NCBI GenBank assembly: GCA_964016885.1
Contig: OZ024741.1
Span: 42,718,001 to 42,782,000 of the forward strand
Length of the DNA: 64,000 bases
Source of the DNA: Eledone cirrhosa
Taxonomy: Eukaryota
Direction of reading: 5' to 3'
The notes below the pieces were generated by a model. The model did not search any database and was not told the origin of the DNA. It was given only the letters and a program-made list of their open reading frames with translations. Both the position numbers and the translations under genes were made by a program. This document shows, piece by piece, positions 11,201 through 61,288 of this stretch (position 1 is the first letter of the stretch; each line of letters opens with the position of its first letter).

Positions 11201-12270
11201 AAGCATCAAAAGATCATACTCCATTACAAAAGATGCACAAAGATACAGTAATGGACTACATATTCCAGAAGTCCCATTCACTGCTGAAATGGAAAACACA
11301 GAAAAAGCAAAGCAGGTAAAAGTAACTGCAAAGAAAGAACTGCTACAGAAACTGCCTAAGAAGGGCAAGAAAAGCCCTGTATGGAAAATACCCAGAACGA
11401 GTTAACAATCCTGATGTTCACAAAACTTTAACCCATCAGTGGTTGGCCTCCTCTGGACTGAAATCGGAGACTGAAGGACTGATTATATCTGCCAACAAAA
11501 AATTACCAAGCCAACATAATAAAAAATGGATGCAGCCCATTATGCTGTGTATGCAAAAAACAACCAGAGACCATTGACCATATAATTTCAATGTGCAGTC
11601 CTATAGCTCCAACCGAATACCTAAACAGAGCTGCACAATACATACATTGGATAATGTGTAAGCATTTTGACCTGCCCCATCAAAAGAATTGGTGGGAGCA
11701 TCAACCACCTCCCATACTTGAAAAAGATCACATCTCAATCTTGTGGAACTTTAGCTTCCAAACAGACCGAAAAATAGATGCAAATAGACCTGATATAATA
11801 TTGAAGGACTTTAAAAAGAGGGTATGCCTGCTAATTGATATGTCTGTTCCAATAGACAAGAATGTATCTATAAAAACATTTGAAAAATTGAGCAAGTATA
11901 AGGACCTGGAGATAGAAATTGGAAAAATGTGGAAATTGAGAACTAAAACAATACCAGTGGTTGTAGGCGCTCTGGGAATGATACCAAGGGGGTCTAATGA
12001 TTACTTATTGCAAATCCCAGGAAACTCGCGTATAGGAGAAATACAAAAGATAGTACTAATGGGAACTGCCCATATACTAAGGAAGATTCTGTCAATATAA
12101 GTACATCACAAGTCTAAACACTAAAGATGCATGTGTGAGTATGTATGTTCTTTCTTGAACATGGCGGACCTTGTTGTCTCTTGAGGTCACTGGTTGTGAC
12201 TTGGTGATAACTCGTATGAACATAAAGCAAGATAAATGCAACTGTAGTAATAATAATAATGATAATAATG
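8300..12270 (+). mobile_element. R4/Dong-type non-LTR retrotransposon (RT + restriction-like endonuclease), near full length, ending in (TAA)n
   Basis: One long ORF broken by frameshifts (8485-12100). RT motifs WIDYKKAFDS, GIFQGDSLSPLLFC and FYMDDLKL; CCHC finger near 11540-11600; RLE motif RPDIIL...LIDMSVP...EKLSKYKDL; C-terminal GTAHILRKIL. TAA-like flanks at both ends. The 5' boundary is approximate. Confidence 0.9.
8485..12100 (+). pseudogene. Dong/R4 polyprotein, several frameshifts
   Basis: ORF pieces 8485..8844, 8745..9683, 9713..10762, 10836..11405 and 11591..12100 are collinear parts of one RT-RLE protein. Confidence 0.9.
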
Positions 12271-12525
12271 ATTTCTTTATTAACCACAAGGGTTTACATA
12301 AAGTAGACATTAAGGACAGTGCAGGACAATACAGGACGGTACAAATGGGCATTTCTGCGTGTAAAGAATAAAAACAGAGGATGTAACAAAAAAATAATAA
12401 TGATAAATTCCCCAATAGGGGGGGGGGGAGACTTCGGGGGTACATTTGTGGAGAAAGCCCAGTAAAAGGCCACAGTGACCCTGACCACCAAGGCAAGTGC
12501 TCTCTCCCAGTTTTCCACCTTTAAT

Positions 12526-15500
12526 TTACAGATACGTACTCAGAGTAGGCCCATTCACTCGGGCCATTCTTGCTTCTCTCACCCATCTTTCAACAAAATG
12601 CTGGGAAGAGAGCACCACCCTCTCTACTCTGATTTTCCTTTTCAAATGAAATTTGAAAAAGTTAATCAGGGCATCACCGAAGAGGTAAGTGCTCGTCTTC
12701 AGCCCTTTCAAACGTGTCCACCATACTATCTCTTTCGCCATGGCCACCAGACAGATAAAAACTGCCTGCCCTTCCAGGCTAAAGGAAGAGGTCGGGGCGA
12801 TCCTCACGATGGACTCAGATGATAGCCGGATCCGTCCTACACGCGACAGCAGGTGTTCGACATAAACCCACAAGTCAGCAATTTTCGGACACTGGACGAG
12901 TGCGTGCAGGACGGTTTCGTGGCCATGCGCGCATCTCGGACATGCCCGGCTGACGGCACCTCCATGCCTGTAGAGTTTATCCCGAACTGGCAAGGCTCCA
13001 CGGTAGCACTGCCAGGCCAGAGATTTCTGGAAGTTGTCCATAGGTCCCGGCCCGAAAGTTCTTCCGAAGAGATTGGCTAGTTGATTTTCGTCGACGCCTA
13101 GTGTTTCCCCAAGTACGTCGTCGCTCTTCCCCTCCATAATCCTCTATAGAAAGCCGAGGTGGAGTTTCAACCGATCACATTGCCCGATTGGTGGAGGGCT
13201 GTGAGCGCCTGAAGACATTCCAGTCTCCAGGCGCTCCCTCTCGGTCTTCGCTTGACCCAGGACTGCAGCTCCGTCAAGGAAACGAGCTGGGGAAATACGT
13301 GTCAAGCAAACGGCGACCACACCTGATTACCGTCGAGGAAGAGGTGGAGATGTCGTAGCCTGAGCGCGTGTCTGCGCATCATCAGCCACGGCATTCCCAG
13401 CTCTCCACGTAGCGGGTGTTGACAGCAGATGGACCGCCTGACCATCGAAGCGCGCCCCTTCCACAAAAAGCGAAAGAGCAAGCGCTCCAGCGCAGTCAGG
13501 CGGGGCTTAGGACAAGGTACGACGGTCAGGCGGTAGCAGATGACAGACGCGATGTATGCGTTAGCCACCTCCGCTCGACCTTTCAGGGATAGCTTCCTCT
13601 CCGCCCATTTCTGGGTGAGAGAAGCCACCCTGCTCATTACCTCGTCCCAGTTTTTCTTCGTCTGGAGGTCCGGACCGAACCAGACCCCTAGGAATTTAAC
13701 CGGTCCGTCCGTCCAGCGTCCGACGACGCTGTTGGACGGCATGGACCTGCCTCTCCAGGTGCCGAGCTGCAGGCCCACTGACTTTTCCTGGTTGATCATT
13801 GCTGCTGTCACCGCTTCGTATTCTCTTAGCGTAGTGCCGATCGCCTCGATGTGTTTGGCGTTCGACACCACTACGGTGACATCGTCCGCATATGCTGACA
13901 CGGATCTTCCGCATCCTAGTTCGCGCGGGACTCCCCTCAACATCTCCAGTTTGTGCAGTAATGGCTCGAGAGTCAATACGTACAAGAGGGACGAGAGGGG
14001 TCATCCTTGGCGGACCGAGCGCATGATGTTGAACGGTTCCGACAGGTGACCGTTCACACTCACCACAGAGCAGATGTCGCTGTGCATGGCAGCGATCCAG
14101 CCTCTGAAGACGGGCCCAAAGCCAGCCGCCCTCAGGACTGCCGCTAGGCAACGATGGTCGACCCTATCGAAAGCTTTCGACTGATCTAAATTGATCAAGG
14201 ATCCACCCGTGCCAGGTTCCTTAGCTACCCTCTCTATGATGTATCGCATGAGGTGGAGGTTGTCGTGGATGGATCTGTCGGGAATGGCGCATGTCTGCGC
14301 CTCTCCCACCAGGCCACCAACGACAAGCGCCAACCTCTTTGCTAGCACCTTGGCCAAAATCTTGAACTCTGTGTTTAGCAGAGTTATGGACCGGAAATTG
14401 TCTATGTTATCCCCCTTGTTCGGATCCTTTCTCAGCAGTGCCACCGCTCCTCGGCTCACAGAACTGGGAATTCTCCCGTTCTGTTGCCAGTTGCAGTAGA
14501 CGTCTGCCAAGAGGCCTCCGAACAAGTCTGGTATCTGTACGTAAAGTTCATAGGGCAGACCACCAAACCAGGCGATTTACTCCTTGTACAGCCAGTCATT
14601 GCCTCCCTTACTTCAGCGGCTGTTATCGGCTTTTCGCAACACTTCGCCTCAGTGGCCGAGAGCCGCGGCAGTCCGTCGAGGTAGACACTAAAGTCCATCC
14701 CTCTACTCGGCCCCCCGCTGCCCCCGAACAGCTGAGCGAAGTGTCGCTGAAAAGCCTCACACATTTGCCCGGGATCGAGTAGCATGTGCCCGTCGTGGTC
14801 CACCAAAGACCGGATCGTGGCTTTGTTGCCACGACGTGCCTCCGCCACTCGGGCCCATTGAACGGCTTTCGTCCCCTCGTGTCTGAGAGCACGCACCCTA
14901 GCTCTGACAACGCAGCCTTCGTGCTTTGCATTGAAGAATTGGTCAAGGGCCAATTTCGCCGCAAGCACGTCGGTCGCAATGCCTTTGCTAAGCGCCTCGT
15001 CTAATTTTCTAAGTAGTTCTCCCTCTGCTCTATTTTTCTCTATTGCTAAAGCCTTACTAAACCTAATCGATTCTATTCTAATCGCTCTTTTCAGAGCAAA
15101 CCACCACTTGTTGTTGACGATGGCCCCCGTCAACGCCCGCTTAACTAGTTCGCTAATCCGGTCTCTGTAGGCCTTGCGCGCTGGTAAGGACGCGTTTAGC
15201 TTCCAGTAGCCGGGTCCTCGTCTATGAAGCCTATCTAAGTCAAGCACACAGGTCACGAATTTGTGGTCCGTGTAGCTGACTATCTTGAATTGTGGACAGC
15301 CTATGCTAGACCTATCTATTTCCCTACAAAATACTCTATCTAGATATGATCTGGATGACCCTATGCGGTTTGTCCAAGTCCACATTGGCACATTCGGGAA
15401 ATCCAATCGGTACCTGTCAGACAGTTCAAAACGCCTGAGCAGGTTGGTGAGGCTCTTGCACCATCCACCCCTATCCGCTAATACCACACAGTCCCAGCGT

Positions 15501-15943
15501 GAATCTAAGATCCCGTTCCAGTCGCCTACTAACACTAAAGAGCGGGACGTTCCAAGAAAGGTCTCCAGACGCCGGAAGAAATCAGGCCGCCCTGCTCCTG
15601 TCGGGGCATAGACGGCCACTAGCCTGAAAGCTTGCCCGTCTCCGCTGGTCACGTCCAGCACCACTAACTTACCCTCTGGGTCCAGGAAGATGGCCCGTAT
15701 GGCGAGATCCAAACCTCTCCGAAAAAGCACAGCAACTCCTCCACCCGATCCAGGACGGCTGGGAGATGCGTACACATCGCAGCCGCCGAAGACCGGTGCG
15801 AAGGCCCGTGCTTCGGAGATTCTGGTCTCGCTGATGGCCACTACATCTATGTTTAGTGAGCTGAGGTCGTTTAGCAGGTGGTACTGCTTCCATGACGACC
15901 CCAAGCCACGCGCATTTATGCTGCCTATTCTGAGTGAGGTCAT
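12526..15943 (-). pseudogene. LINE ORF2 (APE endonuclease-RT-Zn finger), disrupted
   Basis: Pieces 14456..15943 (SINARGL, ISET, VGDWN, SYLDR, TDH), 14001..14525 (LDQSKAFDRVDH, SVRQG), 13302..13985 (YADD) and 12526..13137. Confidence 0.92.
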
Positions 15944-15978
15944 GTTTAAAATAGAGTGGAAAAGATGGGAAAGACCAC

Positions 15979-18075
15979 TTACCGTACTTTTGGTAGAGGA
16001 GGGATGGTTTTTACATCCCTTTTCACTTGATCGTCTGGTGAAGGGACCGTTGAATCGTCCCTTCGGCTGGTCGTCAGCTCTTCTAAGAGAATGTCTGAAT
16101 ATACTCTTCGATTGATGGTTCCTCCTAGGTCCCTGAAATCACCAACTGCGTTGGGGAATTTCGTTTTATTGTTTGTGTATTGTTTCTGTGCTATTTTTAG
16201 CAGTCTTATGTTAGTTGGCGTTTCGATTGGTGCTGGTATTATGTAGTTGTGTTGTGAAATGTCTGTGTGTTCAATTATGTAAGTCATTAGTTTCTTGTTG
16301 TGTGTGTTTATTGCCGTGCATTTGTTTTTCTGGGGGTGGGGTGTGGTTCTGCTATTTTCTTGTCGTTGTTGCTGGGTGTGTCTGTTTTGTTGTTGTGTTT
16401 GCGATGTTGGTGCTTGTGGTGGTGGTGTTGAAGGTGTTGTTGGCGGTGGGGTTGTCACCGGTGGTGATGGTGGTGCTAGCGTGGGTGGTGATGGTGTTGG
16501 TGGTGTTGCTGCTGTGGGTCTCTTTGCAGTAGACTTTACCCTTTTCTCATTTCTTTCCTCCCTTTTCAAAGGCGACGATGCGCTGCTTCTGCGTTTGTGC
16601 CTTCTTGCGACCTTTTGCAATCCCTCTCCCACCTCACACTCCATGTCTGATTCTGTAAGGTCGGGGAGGGGTACCAGCTCCACTCTTTCACTTGTTGTTG
16701 TTGGTGATGTTTGCACTGGAGTCTCTGTTGCAGCTGCATTTGGTATTGCTGTTGTTGTTGTTAATATTTCCACTGCTGCTGCTGTTTTTGATTTCCGTGG
16801 AGTGGGTATGGGTGGCACGGACCTATCGTTCCTGGTTGCCGCTTGTCCTGTTGCTGGTAGCCGTGGAGCCGGATTCGGAAGGAGGGGGGTTTTCTCCTTT
16901 CTCAGGGTCTTCTCGTTGCAGAAGGCCCTGAGGTGAGTCTTCGATCCACAGCGAAAGCATTTCGGGCGTTTGCCCTCAACACTTATGGGCAGTTGAGTGC
17001 CGTTATCGAAGTCTATCACATCCGGGATAGCTTCGATGCACTCCTGGTTGGTTTGGATTAGCATCTCAATGGAGGAGCCGACCCAATCTTCTCTTACTTT
17101 TTTCTGTACTTGCAGTACAGTTGTTTTGTCCTCGATTCCGACGAGGACAGACGCGGCCAGCCAAGAAGGGGTCATTCCGTGGGGGACGTGGGTCAGTTTG
17201 ACCCTCACAATTTTTTGCCCGCAGTAGGAGGGCACCAACACCATTTCCTCGCTCCTTAGGGTCACTACTGATTGGGCCTTTGCCTCCTGGGGTGTGGCAA
17301 AAAGTACGTCTACGGTGGCATATTTTTTGCCTCGGGTGATGTGCGTTTTCCGCTGCCACACAGACCCCAAGGCTTTTTGTATTTGGGCCTCTGTGGCTCT
17401 TTCCACCCTACGGGATTTTGTACTTACTGTACGGTACGTGACCGTACAGTGCTCTTGGGTTTCGAAAAATTTTTCCGCTGCCTTGCAGATTTCTCTGTGT
17501 CCGTTCTTTGTCACCATCTTCTTCGCTTCCTCTAATTCCTCATTTGTTATGAGGATTGTTTCCAAGTTTTTCGCAATACCTGCAAATGAGATTGGTTTTT
17601 CTCTGCTGTTATTGTTGTCGTCAGAGCTGCTGGTACTTTTGTTGTTGCTGCAGGTACTACGACTACTGCCTCCGCCGCTGTTGCTGTGGTTGTTGTTGGT
17701 GTTGCTGCTGCTAATGCTGTTGTTGTTTATGCTGCTGGTGATGCTGTTGCGGCTGCTACTGTTGTTTTCATTGTCACTGTTGCTGTTGTTATTACGGCTG
17801 CTACTGCTATTATTCCTGACGTCAGACGAATGAACTGGGTTTTCGTATTTCCCGCACACCTGTTTCGTCGCTGTCGTCGTCGTCGTGGAGAAACCTTGCA
17901 CGCTTTGCACGAGACTTTTCTCTTCTTTCGTCACTTGCGAAAGAGAAGGGAGGGAGAGAGACACATTTAAAGAAGGGAGGGAGAGAGACAATCTTCTCTC
18001 TGCTGTAGTGATGATTGAGGAAGAAGAAGACGGAATGAGTGGGAGTGACGTATGAAATTTCTTTTTCGTAGCCAT
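15979..18075 (-). CDS. LINE ORF1 nucleic-acid-binding protein, 698 aa, intact
   Basis: Uninterrupted ORF with a zinc knuckle CFRCGSKTHLRAFC (CX2CX4HX4C), Asn/Ser-rich N-terminus and Pro/Thr-rich C-terminal half. It ends 35 nt before the ORF2 ATG. Confidence 0.88.
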   Translation of the reverse strand: MATKKKFHTSLPLIPSSSSSIITTAERRLSLSLPSLNVSLSLPSLSQVTKEEKSLVQSVQGFSTTTTTATKQVCGKYENPVHSSDVRNNSSSSRNNNSNSDNENNSSSRNSITSSINNNSISSSNTNNNHSNSGGGSSRSTCSNNKSTSSSDDNNNSREKPISFAGIAKNLETILITNEELEEAKKMVTKNGHREICKAAEKFFETQEHCTVTYRTVSTKSRRVERATEAQIQKALGSVWQRKTHITRGKKYATVDVLFATPQEAKAQSVVTLRSEEMVLVPSYCGQKIVRVKLTHVPHGMTPSWLAASVLVGIEDKTTVLQVQKKVREDWVGSSIEMLIQTNQECIEAIPDVIDFDNGTQLPISVEGKRPKCFRCGSKTHLRAFCNEKTLRKEKTPLLPNPAPRLPATGQAATRNDRSVPPIPTPRKSKTAAAVEILTTTTAIPNAAATETPVQTSPTTTSERVELVPLPDLTESDMECEVGEGLQKVARRHKRRSSASSPLKREERNEKRVKSTAKRPTAATPPTPSPPTLAPPSPPVTTPPPTTPSTPPPQAPTSQTQQQNRHTQQQRQENSRTTPHPQKNKCTAINTHNKKLMTYIIEHTDISQHNYIIPAPIETPTNIRLLKIAQKQYTNNKTKFPNAVGDFRDLGGTINRRVYSDILLEELTTSRRDDSTVPSPDDQVKRDVKTIPPLPKVR

Positions 18076-18677
18076 GTTGTTTTTTGTTTAAAATGAAATT
18101 TTGGGTACAAAACCCCAATAATTGGTTATTTAACCCCGAAGGGCCAAATAACGGACAGGAAGACCCCTCTCACGAGGAGGAGGGTGTCTTTATCAACAAT
18201 TTGGTTCAAGTTTTAAACAATTTACAATTGTTTTAACGGTTAAAAATTACTATACCTTACAGAGCCGAGCCTCCGTCAACCATGGCATTCAATAATAATA
18301 ATAATAATAAGAAGAAGAAGAAGAATAAGAAGAATAATCATGAAATATATTTTTATTGTTTTCTCAAAGAGGGGAAAAATAGTCCTCCTGATCCATCTCA
18401 ATCAGAGCCCCCAATCTCGGTGGGAAGTAGGAAAGTATCCAAAAACTGTAGTCTCTGCTGAAAGCACACAAGAGACAGATGATGGTGCTAAACCAAGCGA
18501 CGCATTATGTCACCCCGTTCCGCCCCACCACCTCAAATAGCACATAGTGGGATTTGAACTCAAAGGACTGATGCACTGGAGGAGTACTGTATTTTACGGA
18601 TGTCTAACATTTATAGCGTGCTTCCCTCAAATTGTCTAAAGTGTTTGTATAATTGTTTGTATTATTAACACTAAATG

Positions 18678-18853
18678 GTCGAAGGTTGGCAGTATCGGTA
18701 GAGAGTCGGACGCTATGCTTTGACGCATAGAGTTCAAATTCTGAGTTCAAATCCCGCCGAGGTTAACTTTGCCTTTCATCCTTCCGGGGTCGATAAAATA
18801 AAGTACCAGTAATGCACTCAATAATTGCTGGCGTTGTGCCAAAAGTAGAAACA
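18678..18853 (+). mobile_element. tRNA-derived SINE with 17-bp target-site duplication ATTATTAACACTAAATG
   Basis: B box GAGTTCAAATCCC; CORE-like body GCCTTTCATCCTTCCGGGGTCGATAAAATAAAGTACCAG; tail GCTGGCGTTGTGCCAAAAGTAGAAACA. TSD at 18661-18677 and 18854-18870. Confidence 0.88.
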
Positions 18854-19280
18854 ATTATTAACACTAAATGTTCGCTAAAAAAACGAGCTCCTTCTTTGTT
18901 AACTATTTACATTTTAATTAAACGAATATACCTCTATACGTTTTTTGCTTTCAATTGAAAACTATCAAGCAGCAACAAATGATAAAATAATATATAATAA
19001 TATAATAAATTCTATATAATCAAAGATAGTCTTTGAAAGTAATCATCTGTATAATTAATTTTCTCTTTTACCATCCGTGCACGGACGTATTTGTATCTAA
19101 TTATTGTTTTCCTTTCCACCCCTGGATTCTACAGAAGTAAACTACATGCAAAAAATATAACAGTCGTAACTGCAAATGTCTGGAAAGGTCCCATTAAAAC
19201 TCCATACAAGCTTTTTAAATGTTACTCTTATTACTTACAATTTAATTCCTAGTCATCACAACATTGTGTTCCTAATTCTC

Positions 19281-20128: not shown

Positions 20129-20283
20129 TGTTTCTACTTTAGTCACAAGGTCAGCAATTATCCAGTGCATTACTGGTACTTTATTTTATCGACCCCGGTG
20201 GGATTTGAACTCAGATCGTAAAGGGACGTAACTAAGCTGGAAAGCATGGCGTCCGACCCTCTACCGATGCTGCCAATCCACCC
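20129..20283 (-). mobile_element. SINE, same family, 13-bp TSD GAAATGTTATAAT
   Basis: Reverse complement of SINE body and tail. TSD at 20116-20128 and 20284-20296, reading ATTATAACATTTC on the SINE strand. Confidence 0.85.
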
Positions 20284-23955: not shown

Positions 23956-24050
23956 AATAAACGTAATGGAAATTTGACATCTCGTCCATGATTATTATTA
24001 TTATTATTGCTGGCCTTGTGCCAAAAGTAGAAACAATTATTATTACTATT

Positions 24051-27000
24051 GGTCTAATCGGACGTCTTTTGCTCGCTCCCAGTAAGTCGCTTTATTTACC
24101 CGTTATAATTATTTGTTAAATTTGTCTCACTGTGACAGGGATATAAGCCCATGGGCTTTGCCCTGTGAAGGAGGAAGTATAATATTTGGGCCTTTTGGCC
24201 CAAATATTTGAACAATATTTGAACATTTTACTTTTGAAAATAAAAAAAATAAAAAAACATTGAGAGGAGGGTTAGTGAAATTCACCAAACACCACCACAA
24301 ACAACGTGGACAAAGACAACAACACTGAGAACACTAATTTTGACAAAATTACCACACTAACTACAACAATAACAGCGTCAACCAAAACAGAGACACAGAG
24401 AAAAATGACAACAAATGCAACAACGATATTAACAAGAAAATAAACAACGACAACACCAACAGCAACATTACAAATTGCATCGAAAACAACAACAACGTTG
24501 GCACCAAAAACACAACCAACTACAACAGTGATAACAGCAACACCAACAACACCGTTTGTTGCAGTAGCCACAGCAACAGCACCAACAACAAGAGCAGCAG
24601 TAGCGGCAGCAATAATAGTACTGCTGTAAAAGGGGCCACTTCTTTCGCAGGTGTGGCCCGAAATATAGAGACATTGCTAGTCACGGAGGAGGAGATGGCA
24701 GTCGCAAGAACCATGGTGTCAAGAAACGACAATAGAGTTCCCTGAAACCTCCAACCGATTTCTTCAAAGACCAGCAGCTGTGTACGGTGACATACCGCAC
24801 CGTAAGCAAAATGTCACATCGCGTGGAGAGCGCCACGGAGGCTAAAATCCAAAAGGCCTTGGGGTGAGTCTTGGCGCGCAAAACCCACATCACCCGAGAC
24901 AAAAAGTACGCCACAGTAGATGTACTTTTCGCCAACCCCCAAGAAGCAAAGTCTCACTTTTTGGAAACCCTAAAGAGTGAGGAGATAGTCTTGGTGCCCT
25001 CCTACCGCTGGCAGAAAATTGTGAGGGTCAAAGTGACCGAGGTCCCGCCTGACGTGCCCATACCTTGGCTGGCCGCCTCTGTACTGGCTGGAATCGATGA
25101 GAAGACCACCATACTGCAAATACAGAGAATGGGAAGAGAGAACTGATCAGGAATAGGCATGAAAATGCTAATACAGACTGACGACAGTGCATCGAGGCTA
25201 CCCCAGACATCATAGACCTCGAAGAAAGGCTCCAATTCCCTATAAGCGTGGAAGGAAAAGCACCCAACGTGCTATCTCTGTGAAGGCTCTGAGGTGACCC
25301 TTCTGCCCGCAAAAGACAGCCAAGAAGAGGGCCCCTCCTTTCGACGCCTGATCCGCTGCTACCAAGAGCAGGGCAGGCAACAGAAGCAGAAAACCCTTCC
25401 ATGGTGAGTAGGAGGGCAACGTTCGTGGCACCCATACCAAAGCCATGGACAACTAAAGCAGCGGCAGCAGTGGCGGCAACACCAACAGTCGGAGTAGCTA
25501 CACCGGCGGTAAAATCGCCGGAGCGGGATACACTACCACCACCAACGGCAGTGGAGCTCATGCCCCTCCCGGACGCCGCGGTGTCCGACATCGAGTGTGA
25601 GGCGGGAGGGAAGTGGCAAACGTCTGCCACAAGAAAAGAAAAAAGAAAAAAAACCCTTAGATTCACGCTCCAAAAGCGAAGGCAGACAAAGAGGGGTAAA
25701 GGCTGCAAGGAGATTTGCAGGAACACCATCACCACCAGCATCACCAAAAACACCAACATCGCAAACACAACAAAACACACACACCCAACAGCAACAACAA
25801 GAAAACAGCAACACAATCACCCCTCCCCCTAAAAAGTACACAGCCATAAACATGGCAAATAAAGAACTCATACAACATATAAAGCAGCCACAGATATCAC
25901 AGAAAAAAACTACTACACCCCACCAACACCAAGGACTCTCCCGACAAACATAAGCATCATTGAACTCAAAATAGAACAGTACAAACTTTTAAAACAAAAA
26001 TTCCCCAACGGAGTTGGAGACTTCAGAGGTCCGGTTACCAAGAGGATATACACTGACATCCTCTTGGAAACACCAATAACCAGCCAAAGGGTCGGTTCTA
26101 CTGTCCCTTCACTACACGATCAAAGTAAGTGATCCTTTCTCACTTGCCCCGTTTCTCATCCAACATGGCCGTATTTAGAATAGGCAGTATAAATGTACGT
26201 GGCCTGGGGTCATATTGGAAGCAGGGTCACCTGCTCAACGACCACAGGTCACTAAACATAGATGTGGTGGCCATCAGCGAGACTAGAATCTCCGAAGCAC
26301 GAGCCCTCGCACTGATCTTCGGCAGCTACGATGTATACGCATCTCCCAGCCGTCCAGAATCGGAGGGAGGGTTGACAGTGCTTTTTCGGAGAGGCTTGGA
26401 TCTCGCCATACGGCCATCTCCCTGGACCCAGAAGGCAAGTCGGTGGTGATGTATGTGACCGGCAGCGAAGGCAATGCTTTCAGGCTAGTAGCCGTCTACA
26501 CATCGACAGGGGCAGAGGACGGCCAGATTTCTTCAGACGTCTAGAGACCTTTCATGGAACGTCCCGCTCTTTAGTGTTAGTGGGTGACTGGAACGGTATC
26601 TTAGATGCACGCTGGGATTATGTGTGGCTAGTAGACAGGGCAGGAGGGTGTACAAGCCTCAACAACCTGTTCAGACGTTTTGAACTGTTTGACAGGTATC
26701 CACGGGATTATCCGAATGTGCCAATGTCGACATGGGCAAACCGCATCGGGTCATCTAGATCGTATTTAGATAGGGTATTCTGTAGGGAAACAGATAAGGC
26801 TAGTGTAGGTTGTCAACAATTTAAATTAGTCGACTACACGGACCACAAATTTGTGATCTGTGAAGTTGACTTAGATAGACTCCATAGGCAAGGGCCCGGC
26901 TACTGGAAGCTGAACGCGTCGTTCTCGGTGCGCAAAGCTTACAGAGACCGGATTAGCGAATTAGTTAAGCGTGCGTTGACGGGTGCGATCGTCAACAACA

Positions 27001-29850
27001 GGTGGTGGTTTACCCTGAAAAGGGCTTTAGAGTAGAATCGATAAGGTTTAGCAAAGGAGTAGTGATAGAGGAAAATAGAGTAGAGGGAGAGTTAGTTAGA
27101 AAGCTAGCAGTGGTTTTCAGGACAGGCATCGTAACCGATGTGCTTGCGGCGAGATTGGCACTCCACCAATTCTTCAACGCAAAGCATGAATGCAGCGTTG
27201 TCAGAGCTAGAGAGCGTGCTCTAAGACACGAGGGGACGAAAGTCGTTCAATGAGCCCGCGTGGTGGAGGCGCGACGTGGCAACAATTCCACAATTCGGTC
27301 TTTGCCTAAAAACGGGCGCATGTTGCTCGAATCCGAGCAGATGTGTGCGGCTTTTCAACAGCGCTTTGCTCAATTGATCGGGAGCGGCGGTGGGCCGGAT
27401 CGGAGTATGGACTTCGATACATACCTCGACGGACTGCCGCGGCTCTCGACGACCGCAGCGTAGTGCTGCAAAAAGCCGGTAACAGCAGTTGAAATACAGG
27501 AAACTATGTCTGACTGCACGAGGGGTAAATCGCTAGGTTTCGATGGTCTGCTCTACGATCTTTATGCCTATATGCCAGACTTGTTCGGCGACCTCTTGGC
27601 AAATGTCTACTGCAACTGGCAGCAGAACTGGAGCATACCCAGTTTTGTGAGCCGGGGAGCGGTGGCGCTGTTGAGAAAAGACCCGAACAAGGGGGACGTT
27701 ATAGACAACTTCAGGCTCATAACTCTGCTAAACGCAGAGTTTAAGATTTTGGCCAAGGTGTTAGCAAAGAGATTGGCGTTTGTCGTCTGTGATTTGGTGG
27801 GAGAAGCGCAGACATGCGCCATTCCGGACAGATCCATTCACGACAACATCCATCTCATGCGATACATTATAGAGAGGGTGGTTAAGGAACCTAGCACGAG
27901 TGGGGCCCTGATCAACTTGGATCAATCTAAAGCATTTGATATGGTCGACCATCGTTACCTGCCTGCGGTCCTCGATGCGGCCGGATTCGGGCCCACTTTT
28001 AAGGGTTGGATCGCTTCGATGTACAGCGACAGCTGCTCAGTTGCGGGGGTGAACGATTACCTGTCGCAGCCGTTTAGAATCGTGCGCTCCGTCCGCCAGG
28101 GTTGTCCCCCCTCGTTCCTCTTGTACGTACTGGCCCTAGAGACGTTACTGCACAAATTGAAAACGATGAGAGGCGTCCCACTTGAACTGGGATGCGGGGG
28201 ATCCGTGTCAGCTTACGCCGACGACTTCACCGTGGTGGTGTCAAGCACCAGACACGTCCAGATGCTCGGCACCGCTCTCAAGGAATACGAAGCGGTGACA
28301 GGAGCAAAGATAAACCAGGAAAAGTCGGTGGGATTGCAACTCGGCACCTAGAGAGGCAAGTCCATGCCGTCCGACTGCGTCGTGGGACGCTAGACGGAAG
28401 GACTGGTTAAATTGCTTGGGGTCTGGTTCGGACCGGACCTCCAGATGGAGAAAAACTGGAACGACGTGACGTGCAGGGTGGCCTCCCTCACCCAGAAATG
28501 GGCTGAGAGGAAGCTGTCCCTGAAAGGCCGGGCGGAGGTGGCGAATGCATACATCGCATCCGTCATCTGCTACCGACTCAACGTCGTCCCTTGCTCCAGC
28601 CCAACTCTCACCAAAATGGAGCGCCTTATCTTCCGCTTTTTGTGGAAGGGACGCGCTCCCATGGTCAGACGATCCATCTGCTGTCAACACCCGTTGCGTA
28701 GAGGACTGGGCATGCCATGGCTGGTGATGAGCAAACATGCGCTGAGGCTGCGACATCTCTGGTGCTTACTTGATGGTGAACAGGTGTGGTCGCCGTTCGC
28801 CAGGCACGTTTTCCCACAGCACATCTCCTTGGCGGAGCTGCAGTCCTGGGTCAGAAAAAGACCGAGGGATAGCGCTTGGAAACTGGAATGTCTCCAAGCG
28901 CTCACCGCCCTCTACCAGCTGGGCACTAGTATCGGTGGAACATCTACCTCGGTGTTCTATAGGGGGCTAGTGGAGGGAAAGAGCGATGACGTTCGCGAGG
29001 AGACCCTGGACGTCGAAGAAGATCAGCTGTTCGCTCTGTTTAAGGGAACTTTCAGACCGGGTCCTATGGACAACTTCCAGAAATCCCTGGCCTGGTAGTG
29101 CTACCGGGGAGCGTTGCCGGTTTGGGATAAGCTCTACAGGCACGGAGGTGCTGTCAGCCGAGCCAATCCGAGATACGCGCAGGGCGACGAAACCGTCCCG
29201 CACGCACTCGTTTAGTGCCCGAGGATTGATGACTTGTGGAGCTATGTTGAACACCTACTGTCGCGTGTAGGCCGGATCCGGTTATTGACTAAGTCCATTG
29301 TGCAGATAGCCCCGCCATCCTCCTTTAAAGAGGAGGAAGGTCAGGCAGTTTACATTTGCCTGGTCGCCATGGCGAAAGAGATTGGGTGGTGGACAAGGTT
29401 GAAAGGGTTGAAGACAGACACTTACCTCTCCGGCCAATCCCTGATTATCTTTTTCAAGTTTCACTTGAAGATGAAAATCAGGGTGGAGAGGCAAGTGCTG
29501 TCTTCTAATAAGTTCGATGAAAGGTGGGTGAAAGTGGCAAGTCTTGTCCGAGTGAACGGGCCCGCTCTGAGTATACGCCTGTAGACTCAGGAGTGGGAAA
29601 AGTGAGAGAGGACGCTTGCCCTGGTGGTCAGGGTAGCCGTGGTCTTTGGTGTGGTTTTCACCACGAGCGACCCTCGGAGGTTTCCCCCTTTTTGGGGAAT
29701 ATTTCTTGTTTGAAATTTTTGATTTCTATCCCGATTTCTATCTTGTTATAACCTATTTACACGACCAAAACCCACATTGTATCGACCTGTACTTTCCTGT
29801 GCCGTCTCTAACGTTTTTCTTTGTGTCAGCCCTTGTGGCCAATAAAGAAA
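24051..29850 (+). mobile_element. Tx1/L1-clade LINE copy B (divergent subfamily), full length, decayed, in (ATT)n
   Basis: ORF1 remnants (RKTHITRDKKYATVDVLFANPQEAK). ORF2 26165-29584 has stops and frameshifts (YADD at about 28214-28225). 3' end CCCTTGTGGCCAATAAAGAAA. Flanks ATTATTATTACTATT and ATTGTTATTATTATT. Confidence 0.92.
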
Positions 29851-29853
29851 ACA

Positions 29854-29885
<32 letters not shown>

Positions 29886-32800
29886 GAATGCCATGGTTGA
29901 CGGAGGCTCGGCTCTGTAAGGTATATTAAATTTTAACCGCTATAACAATTGTAAATTGTTTAAAACTTTAACCAAATTGTAGACAAAAACACCTTCCTCC
30001 TTGTGAGAGGGGTCTTTCTGCTCGTTATTTGGCCCTTCGGAGTTAAATAACCGCTTATTGGGGTTTTGTGCCCAATATTTACTTTAAACCCCAAAAACAT
30101 GGCTACAAAAAAGAATTTTCACAAGTCACTCCCACTCATTCCGTCTTCTTCTTCCTCAATAGTCACCCACAGCAGAGAGAAGATTGTCTCTCTCCCTCCC
30201 TTCTCTAAATGTGTCTCTCTCCCTTCTCTTTCGCAAGCGACGCCAGTAAAGAAAAATAGTTTCCAAAATCACGTGCAAAACGTGGAACATTTCTCCACGA
30301 CGACGACAACGACGAAAAAGGTGTGCCGTAAATACGAAAACCCATTTCATTCGTCTGACGTCATGAATAATAGCAGTAGCAGCCGTAATAACAGAGCAGC
30401 AGCACCAGTGACAAGGAAAACAACAGTAGCAGCCGCAACAGCATCAGCAGCAGCATAAACAACAACAGCATTAGCAGCAACAGCAACAAAAAACAGCAGC
30501 AGCAGCAGCAGCAGCAGCGGCGGCAGTTGTAGTACCAGCAGCAACAACAAAAGTAACAGCAGCTCTGACGACGACAACAACAACAACAACAACAAAGAAA
30601 AACCAATCTCGTTTGCAGGTATCGCAAAGAACATGGAAACCATCCTTATAACAAATGAAGAATTACAGGAAGCAAAGAAGATGGTGACGAAAACCGGACA
30701 CAGAGCAATCTGCAAGGCAGCCGAAACATTTTTCGAAACCCAACAGCACTGTACGGTCACGTACTGTACAGTAAGCACAACATCCCGTAGGGTTGAAAGG
30801 GCCACAGAGGTTCAAATACAAAAAGCCTTAGGGTCTGTGTGGCAGCGGAAAACACTTATCACCCGAGGCAAGAAATATGCCACCGTGGACGTGCTTTTTG
30901 CCACACCCCAGGAGGCAAAGGCTCAATCCTTAGTAACCCTAAGGAGCGAGGAAATGGTGTTGGTGCCCTCCTACTGCGGACAAAAAATTGTGAGGGTCAA
31001 ACTAACCCACGTCCGCGCCGGGATGGCCCCTTCTTGGCTGGCCGCCTCTGTCCTCGTCGGAATCGAGGACAAAACAACTGTACTGCAAGTACAGAAAAAA
31101 GTACGAGAAGATTGGGTCGGCACCTCCATTGAGATGTTAATCCAAACCAACCAGGAGTGCATCGAAGCTATCCCGGATGTGATAGACTTCGATAACGGCA
31201 CTCAACTGCCCATAACTGTTGAGGACAAACGCCCGAAATGCTTTCGCTGTGGATTGAAGACTCACCTCAGGGCCTTCTGCAATGAGAACACCCTGAGAAA
31301 GGAGAAAACCCCCCTCCTTCCCAAACCGGCTCCACTCCTACCAGCAACAGGACAGGCGGCAACCAGGAAGGATAGGTCCGTGGCACCCATACCCACGCCA
31401 CCGAAATCAAGATCAACAGCAGCAGTGGAAGTATTAACAACAACAACAGCAATACCAACTGAAGCTGCAACAGAGACTCCACTGCAAACATCACCAACAA
31501 CAACAAGTGAAAGAGTGGAACTGGTACCCCTCCCCGACCTCACAGAATCAGACATGGGGTGTGAGGTGGGAGAGGGATGGCAAAAGGTCGCAAGAAGGCA
31601 CAAACGCAGAAGCAGCGCATCGTCGCCTTCGAAAAAGGAGGAAAGAAACGAAAAAAAAAGGGTAAAGGCTACTGCAAAAAGACTCACAGCAGCAACACCA
31701 CCAACACCATCACCACCCACACTAGCACCACCATCACCACCGGCGGCAACTCCACCGCAAACAACAACAGCACCTTCAACACCACCACCACAGCACCAAC
31801 ATCGCAAACACAACAAAACACACACACCCAGCAAAAACGACAAGAAAATAGCAGACCCACAACCCACCCCCAGAAAAACAAATGCACAGCAATAAATACA
31901 CACAACAAGAAATTAATGACTTACATAATTGAACACACAGACATTTCACAGCACAACTACATAATACCAGCACCAATCAAAACACCAACTAACATAAGAC
32001 TGCTAAAAATAGCACAGAAACAATACACAAACATTAAAACGAAATTCCCCAACGCAGTTGGTGATTTCAGGGACAAGGAGGAACTATCAATCGAAGAGTA
32101 TATTCAGACATTCTCATAGAAGAGCTGACGACCAGCCGAAGGGGCGATTCAACGGTTCCTTCACCAGACGATCAAGTGAAAAGGGATGGTGAAACCATGC
32201 TTCCTCTGCGAGAAGAAGTAAGGTAAGTGGTCTTTCCCATCTTTTCCACTCCATTTCAACATGACCTCACTCAGAATAGGCAGCATAAATGCGCATGGCT
32301 TGGGGTCGTCATGGAAGCAGGGCCACCTGCTCAACGACCTCAGGTCACTAAACATAGATGCAGTGGCCATCAGCGAGACCAGAATCTCCGAAGCACGGGC
32401 CTTCACACCGATCTTCGGCGGCTACGATGTGTAAGCATCTCCCAGGCGTCCTGGATGGGGTGGAGGGGGTCAGTGCTTTTTCGGAGAGCTTTGGATCTCG
32501 CCATACGGGCCATCTTCCTGGACCCAGAAGGTAAGTTGGTGGTGCTGGACGTGACGAGCGGAGAAGGGTACGCTTTCAGGTCAGTGGCCGTCTATGCCCC
32601 GACAGGAGCAGGGCCGCCTGATTTCTTCCGGCGTCTGGAGACCTTTCTAGGAACGTCCCGCTCTTTAGTGTTAGTGGACGACTGGAACGGGATCTTAGAT
32701 GCACGCTGGGACTGTGTGGGATTAGCGGATAGGGGAGGAGAGTGCAAGAGCCTCACCAACCTGCTCAGGCGTTTTAAACTGTCTGACAGGTACCGATTGG

Positions 32801-38185: not shown

Positions 38186-38679
38186 TAATTGGAGATCTTA
38201 GATATGTTACTAACTGTCTCAGTACAACCCTTGACAACCTGGGCTTCGCAGAACTAGAAAAGGCACAGCTAGTTCGGAAGTTGTAAGAAAAATTAATTAA
38301 CAGATCTGTAAAATATGTAAACATTTAATAAATGCAGTATATAGTAACTGTATATACACATGTATGGATACAGAATCATGCACGGCTACACATATAACTC
38401 AATTCATACAGATCCACACATATAATAACGTAATACCGTCACACACACATAGACACACACGCACACGCACACAAACACATACACACACAAACCCATTTAC
38501 AGACATACATACGTACTTCCCTAGTTGATGTCGAAATTACAATGAAAAAATATTGTTTTTATGTTAGAAATCGACTCCTCTATTGTTGAAAATTCAGGAA
38601 ATATAACCAGAACATGCATGCACGCACATGCATATCTATAAATCAAATGTCTATCTATCTATCTATCTCTCTCTCTATC

Positions 38680-41600: not shown

Positions 41601-44500
41601 ACAGTAGACGGATTAGCACTTTAGTTAAACAGCACTTGACAGGGGCCATTGTCAACAACAGATGGTGGTACTCTCTCAAGAGGGCAGTTAGATTAGACTC
41701 GATAGTTTTTAGTAAAGAATTAGCGTTAGATAGAAATAGAACCGAGAAGGAACTGGTAGATAAAGTAGAAGAGGCAATTAGAAGTGGCAACGTAGCCAGC
41801 TGCTAGCAACGAGAACGGCCTTGGATCAGTTCTTCGACGCAAAGCACGAGGGCTGCGTTGTCAGAAGCAAAATACGTGCTCAGGGAAACGAGGGAGCCAA
41901 AGCTGTTAGCTGGGCCCGAGTGACGGAGGAAAAAAGTGGCAACATGTCCACGATTCGGTCTTTGAAGGACCAAAACGGACGTGTGATACGTGAGCCGAAG
42001 CAGATGTGTGCGGCTTTTCAGCGGCACTTTGCTCGGCTGTTCGGGGGGAGCGGCGCGCCGGGAGAGGCTATGGATTTTGGTCCATACCTCGACGGCCTAC
42101 CGTGACTATCGGACAGCGAGGCAAAGTTCTGCGAAAAGCTGATTTCAGCCACTGTGATAGGGGACGCGCTGAGCCAATGCGGCAAACGCAAATCTCCAGG
42201 TCTCGATGGTCTACCCTACGGATTTTACGTAGCAATGCCGGACTTATTCTCCGGTCTCCTGGAAGCGGTCTACTGCACTGGCAACAGAACGGGAGAATTC
42301 CCAGTTCTGTAACCGGGGGCGTGGTCACACTAATCAGGAAGGACGAGAATATGGGGGATGACATAGGCAACTTCCGGCCCATAACTCTGCTAAACACAGA
42401 GTTACAGATTTTGGCAAAGGTGTTGGCAAAGAGGCTGGCGCTTGTCGTCGAGAACCTGGTAAGAGAAGCTCAGACATGCGCAATCCCGACCAGGTCCATA
42501 CACGACAACCTCCACCTCATGCGATACATCATAGAGAGGGTAGGGTGTAAACCCGGCTTCGGTGGGGCCCTGATCAACTTGGATCAGTCTAAGGCTTTCG
42601 ATAGGGTTGACCATCGTTACCTGGATGCGGTGCTCGAGGCGGCAGGCTTCGGACCCGTTTTCAGGCGCTGGATTGGTGCAATGCACAACAGCAACATCTG
42701 CTCAAGGATCAAGGTGAACGGCTACCTCTCGGAGCCGTTCCATATTACGCGATCCATTCGACAGGCATGCCCTCTCTCCTCACTTCTGTACGTACTGACT
42801 CTCGAGCCACTACTGCGGAAGCTGGAGCTATTGCAGGGCATCCCTCTGGAACCGGGACTGCGGAAAGCGGCGTCGGCCTACGCCGACAACGTGACAGTAA
42901 TGGTGTCGAGCGCCTCGCAAATCGAGGAAGTCGGCCCCTTACTGAAGGAATACGAAAGTCTCACAGGAGCGAAGCTGAACCGGGACAAGTCCATCGGTTT
43001 GCAACTCGGATCGTGGAGAGGAAGACCGATGCCTTCCGATGGCGTCGTCGGACGCTGGACGGAAGGACCGGTAAAGCTGCTCGGGGTCTGGTTTGGTCCG
43101 GACCTCCAGGTGGAGAAGAACTGGAACGAAGTGACGGCCAAGGTGTTTGCACTCACCCAGAAGTGGGCCGAGTGCAAACTATCCTTGAAAGGTCGAGCGG
43201 AGGTGGCGAACACTTTTATAGCGTCCGCCATCTACCACCGCTTGACCGTCGTGCCTTGTCCAGCCAAAACGCTCGCCAAAATGGAGCGCGCGCTCTTCCG
43301 ATTCCTTTGGAAGAGGCGGGCTCCTTTGGTGAGAAGATCCATCTGCTGCCAACACCCTTCTAACGGAGGGCTGGGGATGCCGTGGTTGACGATGCGCAAA
43401 CACGCGCTGAGGCTGCGGCATCTCTACGTATTCCTCACCGGACAACCGGTGTGGGCCCCGTTCGTGAGGCGCGCCTTCCCACGACTCGTCTTGCTGACCG
43501 AGCTGCAGTCCTGGGTCAAGCAAAGACCGAGGAAAATGGGCGACTGGCACATCGAATGTGCTCCGGCGCTCACAGCCCTCTGGCAGGCGGACCCGGCGAT
43601 CAGTGGAGACTCCACTTCGTCATTATATAGAGGGTTGGTCCGCAGCAAGTGCGACGACGCGCTCGGTGAAACTCTAGGCGTAGAGGAAGATGAACTGGCC
43701 AGTCTGTTCGGTAGGACCTTCCGCCCGGGACCGATGGACAACTTCCAAAAGTCCCTGGCCTGGCAGTGCTACCGAGGAGCTCTACCAGTTCGAGACAAGC
43801 TCTACAGACATGGGCGCCCGGGCAGGGACCCTGCAAAAAAGATCTGTCCGAGGTGCGTGCGAGACGAAGAAACCGTCGCGCACGCATTCATACACTGCCC
43901 GGGCGTCATTGACCTGTGGGGCTATGTGGAACGACTATTGTCGCGGGTGGGACCAATCCAGTTGACCACCGAGTCCATTGTCATGATCAAACCGCCACCC
44001 TCCTTCAAAAAGGAAGGAGAGGCGGTTTTCCTTTGTGTGATAGCTATGGCGAAAGAGGTTGTATGGTGGACAAGGTTGAAAGGGCTGAGGTCAGACACCT
44101 TTCTCTCCGGCCAACAACTGATTCTTTTTTTCAAATACCACTTTGGAAGAAGAATCAGGATGGAGAGAGAGGTGCTGTACCCCAGCAAGTTTTATGAAAG
44201 GTGGGTGAAAGTGGCGAGAATGGCCCGAGTGAATGGGCCTTCTCTCTATATCAGCCTGTAGGTTGAGGAAAAGGAGGAGGAGAGGAAAGGAGTACAAACT
44301 CTTCGTACTCCTGGAGATGAGGGTTGCACATTTTTTTTCGGGGGTATGTGTTACCCATATAAACTGTCTCCCTCTATTGGGGAAAATCGACTAACTTTTT
44401 AAATTCCATTTGTGATAACATTTTACACGTTTTTATTGTATGTAAACTTCCCCCTTTGTATTTGTCCCCTTCTTTTGTGCCCCTGTGGCTAATAAAGAAA
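38680..44500 (+). mobile_element. Tx1/L1-clade LINE copy D (third lineage), full length, inserted in (TATC)n
   Basis: ORF1 pieces 39300..40334 (CYHCFSRDHLRASC) and 40171..40794. ORF2 40828-44261 has frameshifts and YADN in place of YADD. 3' end CCCCTGTGGCTAATAAAGAAA. CTAT repeats at 38650-38679 and 44503-44527. Confidence 0.92.
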
Positions 44501-44537
44501 TATATCTATCTATCTATCTATCTATCTGTATATAAAT

Positions 44538-52919: not shown

Positions 52920-53021
52920 ATCGTTTATACGTTAGGCACAAGGCCAGCAAAACCCAGTGGTACTTTATTTTATCGACCCCGTAAGGATGAAAGGCAAAGT
53001 TATCCTAGGCGTGATTTGAAT
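52920..53021 (-). mobile_element. SINE fragment
   Basis: GGCACAAGGCCAGCAA...TGGTACTTTATTTTATCGACCCCGTAAGGATGAAAGGCAAAGTT. Confidence 0.8.
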
Positions 53022-55799: not shown

Positions 55800-55802
<3 letters not shown>

Positions 55803-55985
55803 GTTTCTACTTTTGGCACAAGGCCAGCAATTACTCAGTTCATTACTGGTACTTTATTTTATCGACCCCGTAAGGATGAAAGGCAAAGTTAACCTCAGTG
55901 GGATTTGAACTCAGATCATAAAGGGTGGTAGCTCTATGTTTCAAAGCAGGCGTCCGACCCTCTCACGATACTGCCAATCTCGTGG
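55800..55985 (-). mobile_element. SINE, same family, full length
   Basis: Reverse complement of the tail (TTGTTTCTACTTTTGGCACAAGGCCAGC), body and B box (GGGATTTGAACTC). Confidence 0.88.
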
Positions 55986-59261: not shown

Positions 59262-59358
<97 letters not shown>

Positions 59359-60169
59359 GTATATTATATGTATTGGATAATCTTATTTTTAGAATTTCTT
59401 CAAATCCCTAAAAGTAAAATATACAAAAAAATATATTTTATTAATTTTTTTCTTATCTGATTATAAAGAATCTTAAGAAATATATTTTATTGTTCTTGTT
59501 TTGTATGATTATTTTGATCTTCATCTTTATCTAAGTTATATTTTTTTAATTCTAAATCCTACATCACATGTATTGAATCAGAATTGTATAGAATTCTCTT
59601 TTGAAATACAATATTTTGGAGATGTTTTTGCGGGAATTATCGTATTTTAATTAATACAATATTGACTACAGGATTCTGATAATCTCATTGGTATATAGAT
59701 TCTACAGAATAAATAGCAAAGGCCTCAGAGGAATTTTTTTTATTACACCTTGCCTCGTTTATTTTTGCCTGAAAGTATTTTTTAACAACGATCGGTGTGT
59801 TAGACAAATGACAATTTGTCAATTTGATGTCAATTTTATTTAATTAAAACTGTTTGACATATTTGTGACTTATGGAGAGCCAAGTTGTTCTGTTGGACCA
59901 GGATTAATATCGTTGCAGGTTTTGAAGAACTCTCTTTTATTTTGTTAATTTTATTTACGTTATATAAGATGACTGGTATGAAATGCTATGGTTCCCTAAC
60001 TACTGATGGAGTCGTAGGGGCGCCACATTGACATGCAGTATTTTATGGGTATTTTAAGCTTGGTAGAACCAATACCTCTCCATGCCTGCGTGCAGCATAT
60101 TACTTCCAGAGAAAGATAGAAAGTGAGAGAGACGCGAGGAAGAGATACAGAGGAAGAATAAACCTCAGT

Positions 60170-60275
60170 AGTTGACTGGTACATTTTTATTGACCTCGAA
60201 AGGTTGAAAGGTATAGTTGACCTCAACGCGATTTGAACACAGAGAGCAGAGAGCCGGAATGAGTACCACAAAGCA
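60170..60275 (-). mobile_element. Diverged SINE
   Basis: CTGGTACATTTTTATTGACCTCGAAAGGTTGAAAGG...GATTTGAAC. Confidence 0.7.
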
Positions 60276-60299
60276 CTCTATCAGTCGTTATAAGATTGG

Positions 60300-60452
60300 A
60301 CACCATGCTTTGAAGCATAGAGTTACGTCCCTTTATGATCTGAGTTCAAATCCCGCCGAGGTTAAATTTGCCTTTCATCCTTACGGGGTCGATAAAATAA
60401 AGTACCAGTAATGTACTGGGTAATTGCTGGTCTTGTGCCTAAAATAGAAACA
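60300..60452 (+). mobile_element. SINE, followed by ATTATT
   Basis: B box, body, and tail GCTGGTCTTGTGCCTAAAATAGAAACA. Confidence 0.85.
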
Positions 60453-60606
60453 ATTATTACATTATCCCAATATGATGACTATCCATCTAGAATGGAGGAA
60501 GATCAACCTTGACCTATTGTTTATTAAATCATCCAATGCTACTTACATTGCTTCTGTTATTCTTGCATTTATTCCCTAGTCACCAGTACAATCTAGATTA
60601 GCGTGT

Positions 60607-61288
60607 ATTATAGTAGCAATCCATTTAGGGCGGTGGATTGGTAGTATTGGTGAAGCATCGTACACCAAGCTTTGAAGCATAGAGTTACGCCCCTTTATGA
60701 TCTGGGTTCAAATCCCGCCGAGGTTAACTTTGCTTTTCATCCTTACGGAGTCGATAAAATAAAGCACAAGTAAGGTACAGAGGTCGACTTAATGGACTTT
60801 CCCTCCCCCCAAATTACTAGCCTTGTGCCTATACTAGAAATCATTATATTAGCAATCTATGTGGTGGTGGATTGGCAGCTTTGTGGCATATATTGTCCCT
60901 TTACAATGTGAGTTCAAATCTCACCAATGTTAGTACCAGTAACAAAATGGTGTCCATTTAATCGACTTTCCCTCCATCCACACAAATTGTTGTCCTTGTG
61001 CCTAAATCAGAAACATTTATTTCAAAATCAGAAACCATTATGTTAACCATCCATAGGTTGGTGGATTGGCAGCATAGGTAGATAATCGGACAACATGTTT
61101 TGACCTTTAATTACATCCTTTACAATCTGAGTTCAAATCTCACCAAAGTTAGATTTGCTTTTCATCCTTATGGGGTCAATAGAATAAAGTACCAGTAATG
61201 CACTGTGGTCAATTTAATCGATTTTCCATCTCCCCAAAATTTGTTTGCTTAGTGTCTAAATCAGAAACCATTATATGAACCATTCATT
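60607..61288 (+). mobile_element. Head-to-tail array of three SINEs (60628-60842, 60863-61036, 61056-61269) bounded by related ~20-bp ATTAT spacers
   Basis: Each unit starts GGyGGTGGATTGG-like, has GrGTTCAAATC and ends TGTGCCTA...AGAAAyC. Spacers begin at 60607, 60843, 61037 and 61270. Confidence 0.88.

Follow-up and report, generated by a model that had tools for sequence, protein, structure and literature searches.

Which reverse transcriptase copies an abundant short interspersed element (SINE) whose 3' ends are followed by ATTAT? The question is raised by a stretch of 64,000 nt from the octopod Eledone cirrhosa (GenBank assembly GCA_964016885.1, contig OZ024741.1, positions 42,718,001 to 42,782,000 of the forward strand; hereafter the window, position 1 being its first letter), in which copies of this SINE lie among long interspersed elements (LINEs) resembling the Tx1 clade. 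The original prediction, made from the letters of the window, held that the SINE is mobilised by an ATT-specific Tx1 lineage whose specificity it inherits. Our analysis supports this through target, tail and the size range of the target-site duplications (TSDs): very probably, the SINE is copied by the product of open reading frame 2 (ORF2) of ATTAT-targeting Tx1-like families, namely A (with its copy C), B and F.

The SINE and its ATTAT target

The SINE is a non-coding, high-copy element of 184-210 nt, flanked by TSDs and often 5'-truncated. Its head carries A- and B-box-like motifs, recognised by eye with what we take to be the consensus of these boxes; ARAGORN called 0 tRNA genes and Rfam gave no tRNA match. 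The head is probably tRNA-like, and RNA polymerase III (Pol III) would transcribe it. An older SINE with the same central core and a longer CT-rich tail before (CATA)n-like repeats also occurs in the window (50379-50700, plus strand; 59987-60293, minus strand).

Throughout the 3.0-Gb genome, ATTAT stands directly after 115,881 of the 141,051 exact matches to the 26-nt SINE 3' end (82%), and TATCT, the target of a sister LINE family described below, after none of them (0/141,051). In a sample of 80 stretches of 10 kb at evenly spaced round coordinates (800 kb), a profile built from 40 SINE copies gave 157 matches, 100 of them with a 3' end, of which 93 were anchored and 7 dropped; exact ATTAT followed 68 of the 93 anchored ends, or 79 when one mismatch was allowed. 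The background frequency of ATTAT is 0.27% (0.49% in the SINEs' own flanks), and the enrichment of SINE sites over background, whose absence the prediction had named as one possible refutation, came to ~300-fold.

The two SINE TSDs quoted in the prediction (17 and 13 bp) proved exact on re-reading, each beginning with ATTAT on the SINE strand, as did the quoted ends of LINE A (minus strand; motif at 12292, end at 12270), LINE B (29830-29852) and the SINEs (24014; 60821). Among all fetched loci, 229 distinct SINE ends had flanks and 173 were testable with an exact 10-nt key; a TSD was readable at 41 of these (median 17 bp, a few being tandem SINE duplications), compared with 11 of 3447 in a swapped-flank null, and a second method gave 35 of 89 ends (null 31/885). 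ATT counts were equal on both sides in 35 of the 41 TSDs, higher on the 5' side in 4 and on the 3' side in 2, and non-canonical target starts (AATAA, AGTAT, GTTAT) were duplicated on both sides. Thus, as had been proposed for the apparent ATT tail, ATTAT is the genomic target and the SINE adds no tail, which is still compatible with a read-through AUUAU in its RNA.

Such a read-through could itself be a source of specificity, the Tx1-like partner remaining the same. Pol III transcripts extend to the first T run, and a SINE or LINE RNA reading into the AUUAU of its TSD would prime only where a nick exposes the complement, so that targeting would come mainly from RNA-DNA pairing and a strict endonuclease would not be required. 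The absence of the SINE from TATCT, despite a tail shared with TATCT-targeting families, would then be accounted for as well. However, the non-canonical target starts are duplicated and not overwritten, the base preceding the target is C at 22 of 35 sites whereas the SINE ends in A, and ATT and TATCT families have different endonuclease loops; we hold pairing as the main determinant to be unlikely.

A 3' end in common with Tx1-like LINEs

Among the LINEs, ATTAT follows 36 of 40 ends of family A (flank-free query), and 21 of 27 and 22 of 23 ends of families B and F, respectively, the latter two numbers coming from queries that held some flank. Some elements were counted twice. Family F was found in the 800-kb sample. 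These families and the sister family D all show their target at more than 20% of copies, the share taken as target preference in the available portion of PMC4494074. Truncated A copies at unique sites are bounded by TSDs of 9-24 bp starting with ATTAT; for many other copies, a position within an ATT run or a rearrangement at the 5' end leaves no TSD to be read. Furthermore, LINE tails of 21-36 nt (loci L255-L274) sit at SINE-end ATTAT sites and have TSDs of their own (8-24 bp) in 10 of 15 cases, so that the same site is reused by SINE and LINE. These tails comprise little beyond a hairpin and the last 13 nt, and the SINE fragment at 24009 in the window is of equal extent. There, LINE B had been said to begin in the ATT run of a SINE tail: it does start after an ATT run, at 24051, the supposed tail being only a fragment of 27-30 nt. 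Since this fragment itself lies in an ATT run, either element may have inserted first.

In families A and D, ORF2 contains the Pfam domains Exo_endo_phos, RVT_1 and zf-RVT, in the order apurinic-type endonuclease (APE), reverse transcriptase (RT) and zinc finger, and a CCHC knuckle was read by eye in ORF1 of the Tx1-like LINEs. With phmmer, a naturally open ORF2 frame of 810 aa scored 248-283 bits to four fish proteins automatically named YTX2/TX1, versus 146-147 bits to human L1 ORF2. A quick RT tree, which left out curated Tx1 and L1 rows, groups the octopod rows with YTX2-named rows at a Shimodaira-Hasegawa-like approximate likelihood ratio (SH-aLRT) of 84, with an open fork; because curated Tx1 references are absent from this comparison, we keep to the cautious name "Tx1-like". 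Argonauta hians supplies the nearest named ORF2 relative (72%), and look-ups in a protein cluster resource and an atlas returned no clade name. None of 17 long LINE loci holds an unbroken ORF2, the longest open frames being 810-926 aa. At locus L129, ~10 kb of tandem repeats are weakly similar to the low-complexity segment with which the Tx1-like ORF1 begins, a likeness that may be compositional.

At their 3' ends, SINE and LINEs align without gaps at 14-18 identities in 24 positions, and at only 3-6 of 16 immediately upstream. The aligned end contains a predicted hairpin, GGC-CTTGT-GCC in the SINE, GCC-CTTGT-GGC in LINE B, ACC-CTTGT-GGT in LINE A and GCC-CCTGT-GGC in LINE D, at a distance from the target of 13 nt in the SINE, A, B and D and of 14 nt in F. 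Scored with a 24-column matrix made from 87 SINE ends, six Tx1-like ends reach 10.1-17.5 bits, matched by 0-2 of 4000 random background sites, whereas the other clades of the scored panel (a single Dong family and two families each of CR1 and RTE) fail: their ends, one of Dong, two of CR1 and three of RTE, are equalled by 89-1936 of the 4000 random sites. A better tail match in another clade, which the prediction had named as its possible undoing, was thus not found in this panel.

The panel was drawn from the 800-kb sample, which lends some room to a true partner outside it, be it an L2, Nimb/I, Hero or R2 element or another CR1 or RTE family. Yet when 3488 SINE-masked ATTAT sites of the sample were scored, the two best scores belonged to a SINE that had escaped masking and to a Tx1-like end, and the Tx1-like families already fit target, register and TSD length; we therefore consider such a partner very improbable. 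One CR1 family end (L067, L128) resembles the SINE end superficially (GGCC...GCCAA), with a short repeat of its own, (AT)n flanks and a near-background score.

A Dong/R4-like element, targeting the same microsatellite, lies within the window itself. It is young and abundant (40 of 40 scored matches 98-100% identical), its insertions lie in TAA runs, and its 5' region contains a piece of SINE, all of which could recommend it as the agent of SINE mobility. Its ends, however, have TAATAA after them, on the other strand from the ATTAT of the SINE; its tail scores no better than background (reached by 1478 of 4000 random sites), and TAATA follows 0 of the 93 anchored SINE ends in the 800-kb sample. 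Unlike the Tx1-like LINEs, it has restriction-like endonuclease motifs (by eye, using what we take to be the motifs of this enzyme), the opposite strand and an unrelated tail. That it mobilises the SINE is hardly credible. The SINE-like piece at 8188-8232, whose place in the Dong 5' region had been overlooked in the first reading, recurs with its ATTAT in the same context in other Dong copies (L072 and L091; 94% and 92% over ~600 nt) and hence travels with the Dong family. Dong and ATT-type elements also stand head-to-head on opposite microsatellite strands, in each other's flanks (window 12245-12269; L209, L102, L229), LINE A lying antisense within the TAA run of the Dong element, and one Dong copy has an open frame of 1216 aa (L091:1994-5641).

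In predicted minimum-free-energy (MFE) structures, the 3-bp core hairpin, with a CUUGU loop in the RNA, is present in all nine LINE ends. Across 12 family rows, two of the three core pairs change on both sides; the covariation of 0.326 was equalled by 0 of 500 shuffles, and slid controls gave <=0.10. These predictions suggest that SINE and Tx1-like LINEs share a conserved 3' hairpin with compensatory changes. It could also be that the Tx1-like machinery moved the SINE without recognising its tail, and that the resemblance over 24 nt, hairpin included, is a relic without function or arose by convergence. The matching stretch is short, its stem is weak, and no SINE subfamily whose LINE-derived tail is longer turned up among 289 core matches or among the 20 inspected of 86 genome-wide matches to a longer-tail search, which were 15 SINEs with a tiny LINE tail and 5 that were not LINE tails. 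Against a relic or convergence stand the identical register, the two core pairs changed on both sides and the loop kept across families ~70-80% identical, and we judge it improbable. An intermediate end (SINE stem plus AATAAA) was also sought, and its 4 matches were all mutated SINE copies. At loci L271 and L272, a SINE is fused to a LINE tail without intervening ATTAT, and these may be template-switch chimeras.

Several points weigh against copying of the SINE by Tx1-like ORF2 through this end. Mobilisation is deduced from the footprint, TSDs are visible for only 41 of the 173 ends that could be tested, or 35 of 89 with the other method, and the common stretch is just 24 nt. A hand-trimmed CR1 end reaches 11/4000 in the tail score, and the tails of the TATCT families score 15.6-17.2 bits versus 10.1-17.5 for the ATT families. 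The hairpin is absent from the MFE structure in three of five SINE 60-mers, SINE folds are no stabler than shuffles (z 0.15, 1.35 and -1.35), and only three hairpin pairs are firm, a fourth being unpaired in 8 of 12 rows. The 12 rows share ancestry, and the same rows served to pick the structure, so the covariation is suggestive only. Finally, the SINE copies appear older than the LINE copies: full-length short-subfamily SINEs (n=52) differ from the column majority by a median of 7.2% (minimum 3.3%), and best-hit LINE copies, sets that are biased young, by 4.2% in B (2.1-6.3), 1.1% in A (0-3.1), 1.1% in F (0-4.7) and 0% in D (0-1.0).

Since the TATCT families match the tail equally well, the tail, put forward as a marker of the partner, does name the Tx1-like lineage, and it is the target site alone that singles out the partner within it. 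In the unbiased set, SINE divergence ranges from 3.3 to 31%, with 19% for long-subfamily copies (n=7). The SINE seems to have been lately quiet while its likely partners kept moving, and B is the LINE family nearest to it both in age and in tail (17-18/24).

Copying by an ATTAT-targeting Tx1-like ORF2 could then proceed as follows. Pol III would transcribe the SINE from its tRNA-like head, and the RNA's 3' end is predicted to fold into the LINE-type CUUGU hairpin, at the same distance from the end, to be bound by ORF2. Target-primed reverse transcription is established for non-LTR elements; here, the endonuclease would nick between Y and ATTAT, on the ATAAT strand, and reverse transcription would begin from the fixed end, a presumed chemistry matching the observed footprint of no added tail and TSDs of ~10-20 bp. 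As is seen in the sequences, each insertion leaves ATTAT directly behind its own end, the site is used again, and SINE/LINE tandem arrays accumulate. The TATCT-targeting branch retained the tail, no tested SINE end being located at TATCT.

Family D and the other elements of the window

LINE D, likewise overlooked in the first reading, combines the same tail with the TATCT target, which follows 26 of 27 ends of its family (flank-free query). All 40 of 40 scored matches are 100% identical over a 181-nt 3' query, and the family is thus very young, which may be part of the reason why no exact SINE end occurs at TATCT, although the sample also contains D-like fragments of greater divergence (77-85% to D). 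Family D copies build tandem arrays at (TATC)n. Within the octopod rows of the quick RT tree, D and F form a group (SH-aLRT 99), and this nested position suggests that TATCT was derived from ATT; in a DNA tree, which has no outgroup and includes four duplicate rows from tandem 3' fragments, one branch separates the two targets. The endonuclease loop reads NR(I/V)(G/E/R)SS in 13 ATT-end elements and NRSGTS in 4 TATCT-end elements, and this variable loop aligns with the grafted loop of PDB 2v0r/2v0s. The difference amounts to a single evolutionary event and is therefore a lead, not proof. As a diagnostic of Tx1 the loop was ruled out, its length being that of L1 and not that of the Tx1L graft.

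Tentatively, and without calling it probable, we propose a wider scenario, in which an animal Tx1 lineage recognises by a stringent hairpin a minimal 24-nt end without poly(A), sufficient for >140,000 SINE copies, and in which one branch switched from ATTAT to TATCT with a loop change from NRIGSS to NRSGTS, kept the tail and left the SINE behind; such a system is apparently undescribed. If true, the target-switched branch would be a natural experiment separating RNA recognition from DNA targeting.

The elements of the window are listed in Table 1. The SINE profile has 12 matches there, and a repeat search of the window was dominated by microsatellites.

Table 1. Mapped elements and motifs of the 64-kb window
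Feature	Position	Strand	Remarks
LINE A, full-length Tx1-like	12270..18290	-	Pfam, end reading, family flanks; ORF1 CCHC knuckle; broken ORF2 (APE, RT, zf-RVT); ATTAT on both sides
LINE A 3' hairpin ACC-CTTGT-GGT	12283..12293	-	Predicted; 13 nt from end
LINE A endonuclease beta-hairpin loop region	15335..15382	-	NRIGSS type
SINE, short subfamily	18678..18853	+	Near full length; A-/B-box-like motifs by eye
TSD of this SINE, 17 bp	18661..18677 (5' copy), 18854-18870 (3' copy)	+	Begins ATTAT
SINE with 13-bp TSD	20129..20283	-	TSD 20284-20296 / 20116-20128
SINE fragment, 5'-truncated	24009..24035	+	Hairpin and last 13 nt; within ATT run
LINE B, full-length Tx1-like	24051..29852	+	Second ATTAT family, ~78% identical to A
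LINE B hairpin GCC-CTTGT-GGC	29829-29839	+	Predicted
LINE C, family A copy	29886..35044	+	90% to A; begins in the ATT run behind LINE B; lacks its 3' end
LINE D, sister Tx1-like family	38679..44502	+	Same tail, TATCT target
LINE D endonuclease loop	~41388-41435	+	NRSGTS
Second 3' fragment after LINE D	to 44769		
SINE, 5'-truncated	52922..53020	-	13-bp ATTAT TSD
SINE, short subfamily	55802..55980	-	Then ATTAT
SINE, short subfamily	60286..60452	+	Then ATTAT
Three long-subfamily SINEs	60630..61270	+	Tandem cluster
Dong/R4-like element	7901..12244	+	Considered as a rival partner; its real 5' end is 7901 or lies upstream of it
SINE 3' fragment and ATTAT	8188-8232		In 5' region of Dong element

Beyond these, 44900-46615 is taken up by D-like LINE fragments that are rearranged and internally joined, with the end of another element after them. 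A near-perfect (99%) inverted repeat of 202 nt without spacer lies at 23347-23750 and may equal an assembly or breakage artefact, and a MITE-like element with inverted arms of ~440 nt (88%) is located at 3820-5197. A frame of 376 aa at 2150-3280 (minus strand) resembles, by eye and beside frames of the sample, a Penelope-type RT, with no Pfam match. The 800-kb sample also holds cadherin and C2H2 arrays.

Relation to known systems

Among octopus SINEs, OK, OR1 and OR2 were reportedly described by Ohshima and Okada in 1994. The octopus "tRNA-Core/tRNA-Deu" SINEs are also abundant and tRNA-derived, and no partner LINE is given for them in the available portion of PMC8967140, according to which SINEs are the largest repeat class in octopus genomes. 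Set beside them by description only, our SINE may already bear one of these names. The pairing proposed here would supply a partner LINE for one major octopod SINE family and account for the tandem arrays at ATT sites. In bivalves, the SINE partners listed in the accessible text of PMC11481361 are CR1, CR1-Zenon, L2 and Nimb, Tx1 not being among them.

Targeting of microsatellites is a known habit of the Tx1 clade, as in Kibi (TC)n, Koshi (TTC)n and the crocodilian (TTCC)n/(TTTC)n families, and the parts of PMC4494074 and PMC3812793 at hand include neither ATT nor TATC among the targets named and mention no partner SINE for these families. In contrast to Kibi/Koshi-type repeats, a single ATTAT suffices as a target in the octopod families. 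Dong, of the R4 clade, is assigned in the available text of PMC3812793 to the TAA microsatellite, the very one used here, and has a member in the window. What we find most notable is the minimal hairpin end held in common, together with the switch from ATT to TATCT: sister families of ~72% identity have the same tail and two different targets, so that target change in an APE endonuclease could be tested on a small system, and the endonuclease's beta-hairpin loop is a known lever on the L1 endonuclease target (PMC1950540, as far as its text was available).

A SINE-Tx1 pair of this kind was not described in the openly searchable literature, including the available portions of PMC4758252, PMC4824008, PMC5786205 and PMC5804259, the search extending to neither Repbase, Dfam and SINEBase nor supplements. 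PMC13282606, in its available portion, reports active L1-Tx1 families and mostly unclassified SINEs without mention of "target", and its repeat libraries may bear on novelty. In the printed text available to us, the sole Tx1-SINE case met is SINEU with Tx1-Mar of crocodilians (Kojima 2015, PMC4494074), which is poly(A)-tailed and, like ours, ties a SINE to a Tx1 lineage by a common target preference. As far as that text goes, SINEU has snRNA heads, poly(A) tails and a Mariner target, and no non-LTR family resembles the 3' half of SINEU-1. The octopod SINE differs in its probably tRNA-like head, its lack of poly(A), its microsatellite-motif target and a 3' end that matches a LINE.

In its 3' end, our model resembles the stringent pairs, such as UnaSINE/UnaL2, ZfL2, ZmSINE2/3 with LINE1-1_ZM of maize, and SINEX-3_CR with L1-1_CR, which have a common 3' end, a stem-loop and compensatory changes (PMC3747384, PMC4176376, both in their available portions), the last two being only suggested for the octopod pair. 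The maize and algal pairs among them are of the L1 clade, and Table 1 of PMC3747384, as available, contains neither a Tx1 pair nor an animal pair of the L1 group. Read from sequence alone, the common stretch here is 24 nt, versus ~50-100 nt in those stringent pairs (same sources). With this pairing, an animal Tx1 lineage would join those with stringent, tail-based recognition, which bears on the question, raised in the accessible text of PMC3747384, of whether recognition in the L1 group was stringent and then relaxed.

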